DNA from: Escherichia phage SECphi4
Direction: 5' to 3' (one strand)
DNA: 44,569 bases
Sequence record: MT331608
Shown here: positions 31,419-31,802 of the stretch, piece after piece
How the letters are laid out: each line of letters begins with the position of its first letter
How positions within the stretch are numbered: the stretch's first letter is position 1
The notes under the pieces: model-generated
Database searches by the model: none
Seen by the model: only the letters and a program-made list of their open reading frames with translations
Told to the model about the DNA's origin: nothing
Made by a program: the position numbers and the translations under genes

Positions 31419-31740
31419 CGGAGCTGGACAGGCGGGACGTCCCGTTTTGTCCCGCACCTCTAAAACTGCATATTTACTCACCACAATTGCATAAATTAAA
31501 AGCGGGACGGGGGTGCTGTCCCGATCTGTCCCACCCCCAAAATGTGAATGTCTATTCAGTTTTATTGCATAACGTAAGCGGGACAAAAAGCGGGACAGAA
31601 TGAGGCGGGACAAAGCGGGACAGCACCCCCGTCCCAGCCAGTGCTGCCGCGGGTTTTAGCCGATCGGGACAGGCGGGACAAAGCCCAGTCTTTCAGACTA
31701 GACGGGGGTCAATGGCCCCCCTCGTCTGAGACTGAATAAG
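31419..31740. repeat. Iteron element copy B (core 31562..31740) with extra upstream GGGAC palindromes
   Basis: Core matches 14885..15071; upstream part carries GCGGGACGTCCCG and GGGACGGGGGTGCTGTCCC inverted pairs; sits between the chaperone and tape-measure genes. Confidence 0.85.
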
Positions 31741-31802
31741 GTTTGTTTTAAATTCGCTGATACAATAACCGACGGCAACTGCATAAAAAGGGGGACTGCA
31801 TA

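Follow-up and report, generated by a model that had tools for sequence, protein, structure and literature searches.

The closest described counterpart of the locus considered here, judged by analogy of layout, is the oriL/oriR pair of the Bacillus phage SPP1. There, the initiator gene contains oriL, a late intergenic segment contains oriR, and the initiator gp38 binds both (PMC6316719). Theta replication starts at oriL, and it has been proposed that a fork stalled at the gp38-oriR complex sets off the change to concatemer synthesis (PMC6316719). In this system gp38 is a separate protein that goes with the loader gp39 and the DnaB-type helicase gp40. A further arrangement is that of the satellite phage P4. 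Its alpha protein binds iterons both at ori and at crr, which lies about 4.5 kb away and is required in cis. Primase, helicase and a C-terminal winged helix are combined in the single alpha polypeptide, a domain order cited in PMC2777425. In the plasmid pRN1, the origin is found directly 3' of the gene for a primase-helicase-winged-helix protein, and a stem-loop is its essential element (PMC4234260).

The stretch of DNA analyzed here (the window, 44,569 nucleotides from Escherichia phage SECphi4) ends as it begins, bases 1-65 being identical to 44505-44569; it thus represents a circularly closed unit and is a complete Dhillonvirus genome of 44,504 bp. Going by the annotation of one relative, it comprises a leftward early block with the DNA polymerase and helicases, and a rightward block that runs from a small helix-turn-helix (HTH) protein through the helicase-primase, small genes, lysis and terminase to the head and tail genes. 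The turning point of the GC skew, near 12 kb, coincides with the switch in transcription direction and marks neither of the two elements described below. Repeats of other kinds are also present: CGTCATC/CTTCGTC-type runs at 8344-8496 and 11342-11671 on the reverse-strand coding side, which probably encode acidic or lysine-rich repeat proteins and include 54-63 nt repeats (8356-8463) and a 90-nt tandem duplication (11486-11665), as well as a 63-nt tandem duplication with 81% identity near the window end (42469-42594).

Two iteron-bearing elements, copy A (14877-15071) and copy B (31545-31739), stand as direct repeats 16,668 bp apart. Their aligned blocks are 81-100% identical and their 201-nt cores 80% identical, which upholds the initial annotation of a second iteron element in the same orientation as the first. 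The observation of two repeat regions is not in itself new, because the GenBank record of the Sodalis phage SO-1 (GQ502199) annotates both elements, at the same positions, as repeat regions "A" and "B"; its note describes direct, inverted and palindromic repeats similar to each other, and the gap with copy B is its "region A". In the literature on Dhillonvirus, HK578, SO-1 and EP23 we found no analysis of these repeats and no binding or replication data for any Dhillonvirus. What appears to be undescribed is the reading of the pair as a duplicated origin module, the way in which iteron and initiator co-vary from genus to genus, and the fact that a second late-region copy recurs. We propose that copy B is probably a second copy of a replication-origin module that is bound by the phage initiator. 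The element would thus belong with the phage iteron origins and the SPP1-type dual origins.

Copy B lies in a gap between the lambda gpG-like tail assembly chaperone, with its gpT-like frameshift extension, and the tape-measure gene (Table 1). The bounds of this gap are fixed exactly by the stop codon of the gpT-like ORF and the start of the tape-measure ORF, both flanking ORFs having Pfam matches, and the gap reported in the initial annotation is therefore real. Likewise, the premise that chaperone and tape-measure genes are normally adjacent holds for this lineage: in seven Guernseyvirinae relatives nothing separates the frameshift ORF from the tape-measure gene, the two abutting or overlapping, so the gap is an insertion relative to the usual layout of the family. 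Indels of 1 and 11 nt within it among 15 aligned genomes argue against coding. One or two "hypothetical proteins" are annotated inside the copy-B gap in MG581355, MK728541, NC_073086, OK310512 and other Dhillonvirus records; judging from the indel pattern these are probably not genes, and annotators should treat the ORFs called in this gap in several GenBank records with caution. No homologs were retrieved when the N-terminal part of the tape-measure protein was used as a query.

Table 1. Features of the copy-B gap, of copy A and of the neighboring genes, in coordinates of the window
Feature	Coordinates	Strand	Remarks
109-aa HTH protein, just upstream of the helicase-primase	12199..12528	+	Pfam HTH_23, Sigma70_r4_2
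754-aa helicase-primase, candidate initiator	12539..14803	+	AAA_25/RepA-type ATPase; PHROG "replicative helicase-primase"
C-terminal winged helix of the helicase-primase	14459-14800 (residues 641-754)	+	winged-helix fold
Copy A core	14866..15066	+	AT-rich tract (80% A+T), iterons, palindrome, hairpin 15018-15066
Tail assembly chaperone, lambda gpG-like	30727..31104	+	Pfam Phage_TAC_4, E 1.7e-23
-1 frameshift site GAAAAAAA	31092-31099	+	A-run; the -1 frame reads through from the run
gpT-like extension ORF	31188-31418 (from the shift site 31092..31418)	+	DUF1799, E 1.3e-19; stop ends at 31418
Non-coding gap with copy B	31419..31802		384 bp
Left GGGAC boxes: palindrome GCGGGACGTCCCG and one reverse iteron GTCCCGC	31432..31455		conserved in 15 genomes; none in copy A
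AT-rich tract 1, TGCATA/TGCATAA words	31456..31499		70% A+T, against 46% in the genome
Inverted copy of the iteron/palindrome block 31604-31635	31502..31535	-	32 nt, 91% complementary
AT-rich tract 2, candidate DNA-unwinding element	31536..31577		42 nt, 69% A+T
Four direct GCGGGACA iterons	31578..31622 (starts 31578, 31590, 31605, 31615)	+	spacings 12, 15 and 10 nt
Palindrome GGGACAGCACCCCCGTCCC	31617..31635		common to copy A (14950-14968)
Two further direct iterons CGGGACAGGCGGGACAA	31664..31680	+	from the sequence
49-nt imperfect hairpin	31686..31734		100% identical to copy A 15018-15066
Extended -10-like TGATACAAT	31758..31766	+	read from the sequence; missed by the consensus scan
ACGGCAAC, copy of the most over-represented octamer of the genome	31772..31779	+	fixed place 3' of the hairpin
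Tape-measure protein gene	31803..34445	+	Pfam TMP_2, E 2.6e-43; Tape_meas_lam_C

The window contains 19 GCGGGAC words where 8.9 +/- 2.9 would be expected, a count that none of 100 shuffles reached; eight of them fall within copy A or shortly before it, and another eight within the gap. Its core GGGAC is found 14 times in the gap and seven times in copy A; it is depleted outside the two copies, with 38 occurrences in the other ~44 kb against ~73 expected. Within copy B, short repeats at roughly helical spacing, both direct and inverted, adjoin AT-rich DNA, as is typical of iteron origins. The four direct GCGGGACA iterons are invariant over 28 copies from 14 genomes, and copy A has the same set (starts 14910, 14922, 14938 and 14948) with two more after the palindrome, the spacing across both copies being 10-16 nt. 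AT-rich tracts of 42-44 nt with 69-80% A+T lie beside or between the iteron blocks, and tract 2 of copy B has homologs in the GTGAATAGTTATGCA blocks of copy A, of the Salmonella phage FSL SP-031 and of the Enterobacter phage phiEap-2. Nothing in copy A corresponds to the left part of the gap (31432-31535); in its place, copy A has ATTGGTTGC motifs. This left part contains both of the extra GGGAC palindromes that had been noted as absent from copy A, GCGGGACGTCCCG (31432-31444) and GGGACGGGGGTGCTGTCCC (31504-31522). The inverted block holding the second of these and the direct block at 31604-31635 bracket AT-rich tract 2, and the stretch 31500-31640 has a DNA fold with z = -6.8. These inverted iterons around an AT-rich tract would suit helicase loading at least as well as the layout of copy A. 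Copy A has a conserved TATAAT/TATAGT hexamer (14872-14877) shortly before its AT-rich tract, and copy B has none; at copy A, transcription into the origin may matter.

Downstream of the hairpin, the ACGGCAAC of copy B is matched by ACGGCAGC at the equivalent position in copy A (15093-15100) and by an equivalent word in the relatives. Both belong to the octamer ACGGCA[AG]C, which occurs 54 times in the window against 4.7 +/- 2.2 expected. No other 8-mer of the genome is as abundant as its two variants, and it is found in all three reading frames; to the right of copy A there are about 28 on the plus and four on the minus strand, and to the left of it the strands are about even. In FSL SP-031, in a Kagunavirus, in Jersey and in a further contig (L160), too, the octamer ranks first among the 8-mers, and each origin module has one copy of it at its end. 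The octamer may serve as a signal for priming or as a polar signal.

The candidate initiator is the helicase-primase, whose stop codon lies about 60 nt before the start of copy A. A sequence search with this protein against the PDB gave only marginal RepA matches. When we examined relatives with helicase-primases 44-68% identical to that of the window, most were found to have the same module directly after the helicase-primase stop, in the order iterons, AT-rich block (often GTGAATAGTTATGCA), more iterons, long hairpin, about 30 nt and AACGGCAGCA. It is clear in FSL SP-031, in the Klebsiella phage VLCpiS11a, in the Serratia phage Tsm2, in phiEap-2 and in a metagenomic contig of the sister clade (L159), and less so in the Hafnia phage TS33 and contig L160. 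The iteron word itself is GCGGGACA in the window and in L159, GGGGAGA in FSL SP-031, CGGACAA in phiEap-2, TTGCGAGT in VLCpiS11a and TGTGCGGAA in Tsm2, and over these five relatives it shifts with the helicase-primase clade, the 109-aa HTH neighbor being an alternative candidate binder. Furthermore, the recognition-helix segment of the winged helix is similar in both clades with GCGGGACA and different in those with other iterons. A module that keeps its place by the initiator gene and its architecture, with a word that is specific to the clade, is what would be expected of an origin and its initiator. Given the synteny of the module, the co-variation of iteron and recognition helix and the winged-helix fold, we infer that the element is most likely an initiator-binding origin module. 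In Kagunavirus and Jerseyvirus genomes, the gene order around the helicase-primase differs and no comparable iteron cluster was found, which makes these genomes uninformative for the comparison.

The 109-aa HTH protein is more likely the partner of the ATTGGTTGC motif than of the iterons. This motif has 17 exact copies in the window and 28 with one mismatch, against 13 expected; they are mostly intergenic and arranged in pairs or palindromes (488-507, 2392-2417, 5339-5359, 14815-14858, 15132-15140, 15222-15261, 18568-18599, 25826-25848 and others). One pair overlaps a promoter-like TTGCAT-N17-TATATT before the first gene after copy A. ATTGGTTGC is probably an operator or promoter motif of a phage regulator, and that regulator is possibly the 109-aa protein.

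Beyond this family, a scan of IMG/VR for three tandem GCGGGAC words returned mostly unrelated contigs. Among 46 such unrelated clusters, 22 abut the 3' end of a primase or helicase gene, a count made without a control motif, and 13 lie inside an ORF that looks lambda O-like, as judged by eye from one sequence (L020). The helicases beside these clusters have unrelated C-termini. This, together with the uncontrolled count, makes the association class-level support only; at that level, arrays of three tandem GCGGGAC would usually be origins.

The comparison of the chaperone/tape-measure gap among related phages that the initial annotation called for shows copy B to have been kept throughout Dhillonvirus. 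The region around the gap matches 158 phage records, almost all of them Dhillonvirus phages of E. coli, Shigella or Sodalis, with vB_EcoS_Sponge as the closest (98.3%). At least 80% of the query is matched in 150 of the 158, most genomes have two matching places, and copy B is found in all 158 records as well as in the sister clade. In an alignment of copies A and B from 14-15 IMG/VR genomes and the window, conservation extends to the GGGAC boxes and the distances between them but not to the spacer sequences, and some palindromes have changed in sequence yet retained the GGGAC...GTCCC layout; the core measures 200-202 nt in 28 of 28 copies. This pattern suggests that copies A and B are both under purifying selection. 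Between genomes, the A copies are 0.87 identical to each other, as are the B copies, whereas A and B are 0.78 identical within a genome and 0.76 between genomes. The two are hence old, separately evolving orthologous lineages. Concerted evolution through gene conversion between them, which had looked plausible by eye, was rejected on the near-equality of the last two values and on the scattered rank of each genome's own B. The recombination-prone duplication offered as an option in the initial annotation finds no footing in these data either, as within-genome identity barely exceeds that between genomes and every genome has kept exactly one A and one B.

No third copy was found in any genome examined. 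Extra hairpin matches in metagenome contigs, considered as third copies, proved to be contig ends broken inside copy B. At one such contig end (L178, 5734-5766; ERZ1034962.129), the left AT-rich tract of copy B is joined directly to the last two iterons and the hairpin; either iterons have recombined in an internal deletion, or the junction is an artefact of the assembly. The readings as a mobile element and as a plasmid or host origin were rejected in the absence of any match in 5,426 E. coli complete genomes and 72,556 PLSDB plasmids.

In the sister clade, the helicase-primase is 68% and the chaperone about 60% identical to the window's proteins. The same copy A follows the helicase-primase gene, and copy B immediately precedes the tape-measure gene, with one or two additional genes on the reverse strand next to it. 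In two contigs (L188, 10674-11054; L189, 10674-11422) these genes code for uncharacterized proteins of 126 and 123 aa; on one side they are flanked by the frameshift ORF of the chaperone and on the other by copy B, and ATTGGTTGC sites lie alongside. By analogy with SPP1, in which oriR is next to moron genes, they would be moron-like additions by the late origin copy. Other relatives bear on how far the second copy is needed. FSL SP-031, phiEap-2 and probably TS33 have one module only, and with three to four relatives having a single module, the second copy is not essential for this replication system. VLCpiS11a and Tsm2, in contrast, have a second, condensed module with its own iterons between the head-morphogenesis block and the spanin gene. 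This site differs from that in the Dhillonviruses. There must therefore have been two or more events in which a second late-region module arose or moved, and it has been retained.

The likeness to SPP1 goes beyond the duplication as such. SPP1 is, like the phage considered here, a ~44-kb lytic siphovirus. Its two similar origin sequences combine direct repeats with an AT-rich unwinding element; one of them is at the initiator gene, and the other is intergenic and interrupts a conserved order of virion-assembly genes. Copies A and B are likewise two similar sequences, the first after the helicase-primase gene and the second between late genes, and thus have the placement that defines an SPP1-type dual origin. 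The differences are that the SPP1 origins are ~13 kb apart rather than 16.7 kb, that oriL lies inside the initiator gene whereas copy A is just downstream of the helicase-primase gene, and that the candidate initiator here is a single primase-helicase-winged-helix polypeptide, as against the separate initiator, loader and helicase proteins of SPP1. The origin sequences are unrelated to copies A and B, and binding by gp38 is experimental, whereas here binding is predicted from sequence. In its domain composition the window's protein resembles P4 alpha, with primase, helicase and C-terminal winged helix in one chain; however, alpha is a superfamily 3 (D5-type) helicase and the window's protein is RepA/AAA_25-type, and crr is required in cis, while some relatives of the phage do without a second copy. 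The archaeal plasmid pRN1 shares the order of a gene for a small DNA-binding protein, a gene for a multifunctional primase-helicase-winged-helix protein and an origin 3' of it. Unlike the present locus, it has no iterons, a single origin and a primase of the archaeo-eukaryotic prim/pol type.

We envisage that the GCGGGACA iterons, direct and inverted around AT-rich tracts and followed by a conserved hairpin, would form the origin module, and that the initiator would bind the array, most likely through the C-terminal winged helix of the helicase-primase. Copy B would have been inserted between the chaperone and tape-measure genes before the Dhillonvirus and sister clades split, and would have been kept by selection since. 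Its role would most likely be either that of a second site for loading the helicase-primase and priming, or that of an auxiliary site bound by the initiator, as has been proposed for SPP1 oriR or as in P4 crr. Copy B may accordingly be a firing origin, a barrier, a looping partner or a combination of these, and either copy could be the one that fires.

We entertain a more elaborate version of this reading only tentatively. In it, copy B would be a selected control point, gained independently at least twice, once in the chaperone/tape-measure gap of the Dhillonvirus and sister clades and once in the head/spanin gap of VLCpiS11a and Tsm2. Initiator bound there would arrest or re-load replication forks and thereby time the passage from circle to concatemer replication, in line with the proposal for SPP1 oriR; copy B may in addition link replication to tail-gene expression, and the ACGGCA[AG]C octamer would be a priming or recognition signal of the helicase-primase.

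A different reading is that of a transcriptional boundary, with which the conserved TGATACAAT and the hairpin would also agree. Here the hairpin would attenuate or process the late transcript behind the chaperone genes, TGATACAAT would restart transcription for the tape-measure and distal tail genes, and the GGGAC boxes would bind a phage transcription factor coordinating the two plus-strand blocks. TGATACAAT, which follows the hairpin and precedes the tape-measure ATG by 37 nt, fits the extended -10 form (TGnTATAAT) and does not vary among the 15 genomes whose alignment covers it; the tape-measure promoter may well belong to the insertion, to judge from this word. Both copies do stand upstream of plus-strand gene blocks, a point on which the initial annotation was right; the hairpin is stable as RNA (-36 kcal/mol, z -3.4, for the 91-nt stretch 31670-31760); and a protein with Sigma70_r4/HTH matches is encoded nearby. 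Such a boundary could, moreover, coexist with origin function. However, a scan for consensus sigma-70 promoters called none in either copy, and a scan for intrinsic terminators called none in 31300-31900 and 14700-15400. The hairpin lacks a T-run on either strand, the sequence 3' of it being AATAAGG in B and AATAAAA in A, with GGGCTTTGT on the other strand. Across genera, iteron arrays track the helicase-primase gene rather than late-gene starts, several relatives with the same late-operon organization lack the second copy, and promoter-like intergenic sites are occupied by the separate motif ATTGGTTGC. We therefore consider a boundary of this kind unlikely. The coordinated late transcription or antitermination suggested in the initial annotation is not borne out, given the lack of called consensus promoters or terminators and the tracking of the helicase-primase by the arrays; what is left of it is TGATACAAT as a possible local promoter.

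The hairpin could alternatively be the product of a pair of small non-coding RNA genes with host or phage targets. Its identity between the copies and its constancy across the genus (the stem is invariant, the loop variable) would agree with this, as would the one compensatory change, from A-T to G-C, in the sister clade. Nevertheless, Rfam 15 gave no match at gathering and E-value thresholds, only generic long-hairpin miRNA models far below threshold, a tRNA/tmRNA search yielded none that was real, and the scans above called neither a promoter nor a terminator for such a gene. The hairpin folds equally well as DNA on both strands (z -4.05 on the plus and -3.7 on the minus strand). In other genera, structurally equivalent hairpins of unrelated sequence take the same position in the module, and as DNA they are significantly stable, with z of -3.5 to -4.5, except for that of FSL SP-031 (z -1.2). 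Unrelated sequences at the same module position, with equal folding on both strands, are what would be expected of a cis-acting DNA element, and we regard a small RNA as very improbable.

Least probable is a neutral or selfish duplication, that is, a relic of illegitimate recombination or a functionless miniature mobile repeat: a 200-bp direct repeat between genes that are adjacent in relatives, and the several metagenomic assemblies that break inside copy B, would be in keeping with it, but not so the retention of copy B in 158 of 158 records and the sister clade, its invariant length with conserved motifs and variable spacers, the absence of copies from E. coli genomes and plasmids, or the lack of both a third copy and systematic gene conversion. 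A centromere-like partition site was dropped from consideration, as no ParA/ParB-type gene was noticed in the annotations read and the phage is one that we take to be lytic.

Dhillonviruses are common E. coli phages that are part of the BASEL reference collection and of therapy-oriented work, and their replication has so far been uncharacterized. With the reading of copy B as a second initiator-bound origin module, the probable origin, the probable binding domain and the second copy become targets for origin-plasmid assays, for the choice of sites safe for engineering and for tests of the replication-mode switch in a lytic siphovirus. The family-wide pattern, in which the module is constant and the word specific to the clade, would provide a natural specificity series for an initiator of the primase-helicase-winged-helix type.
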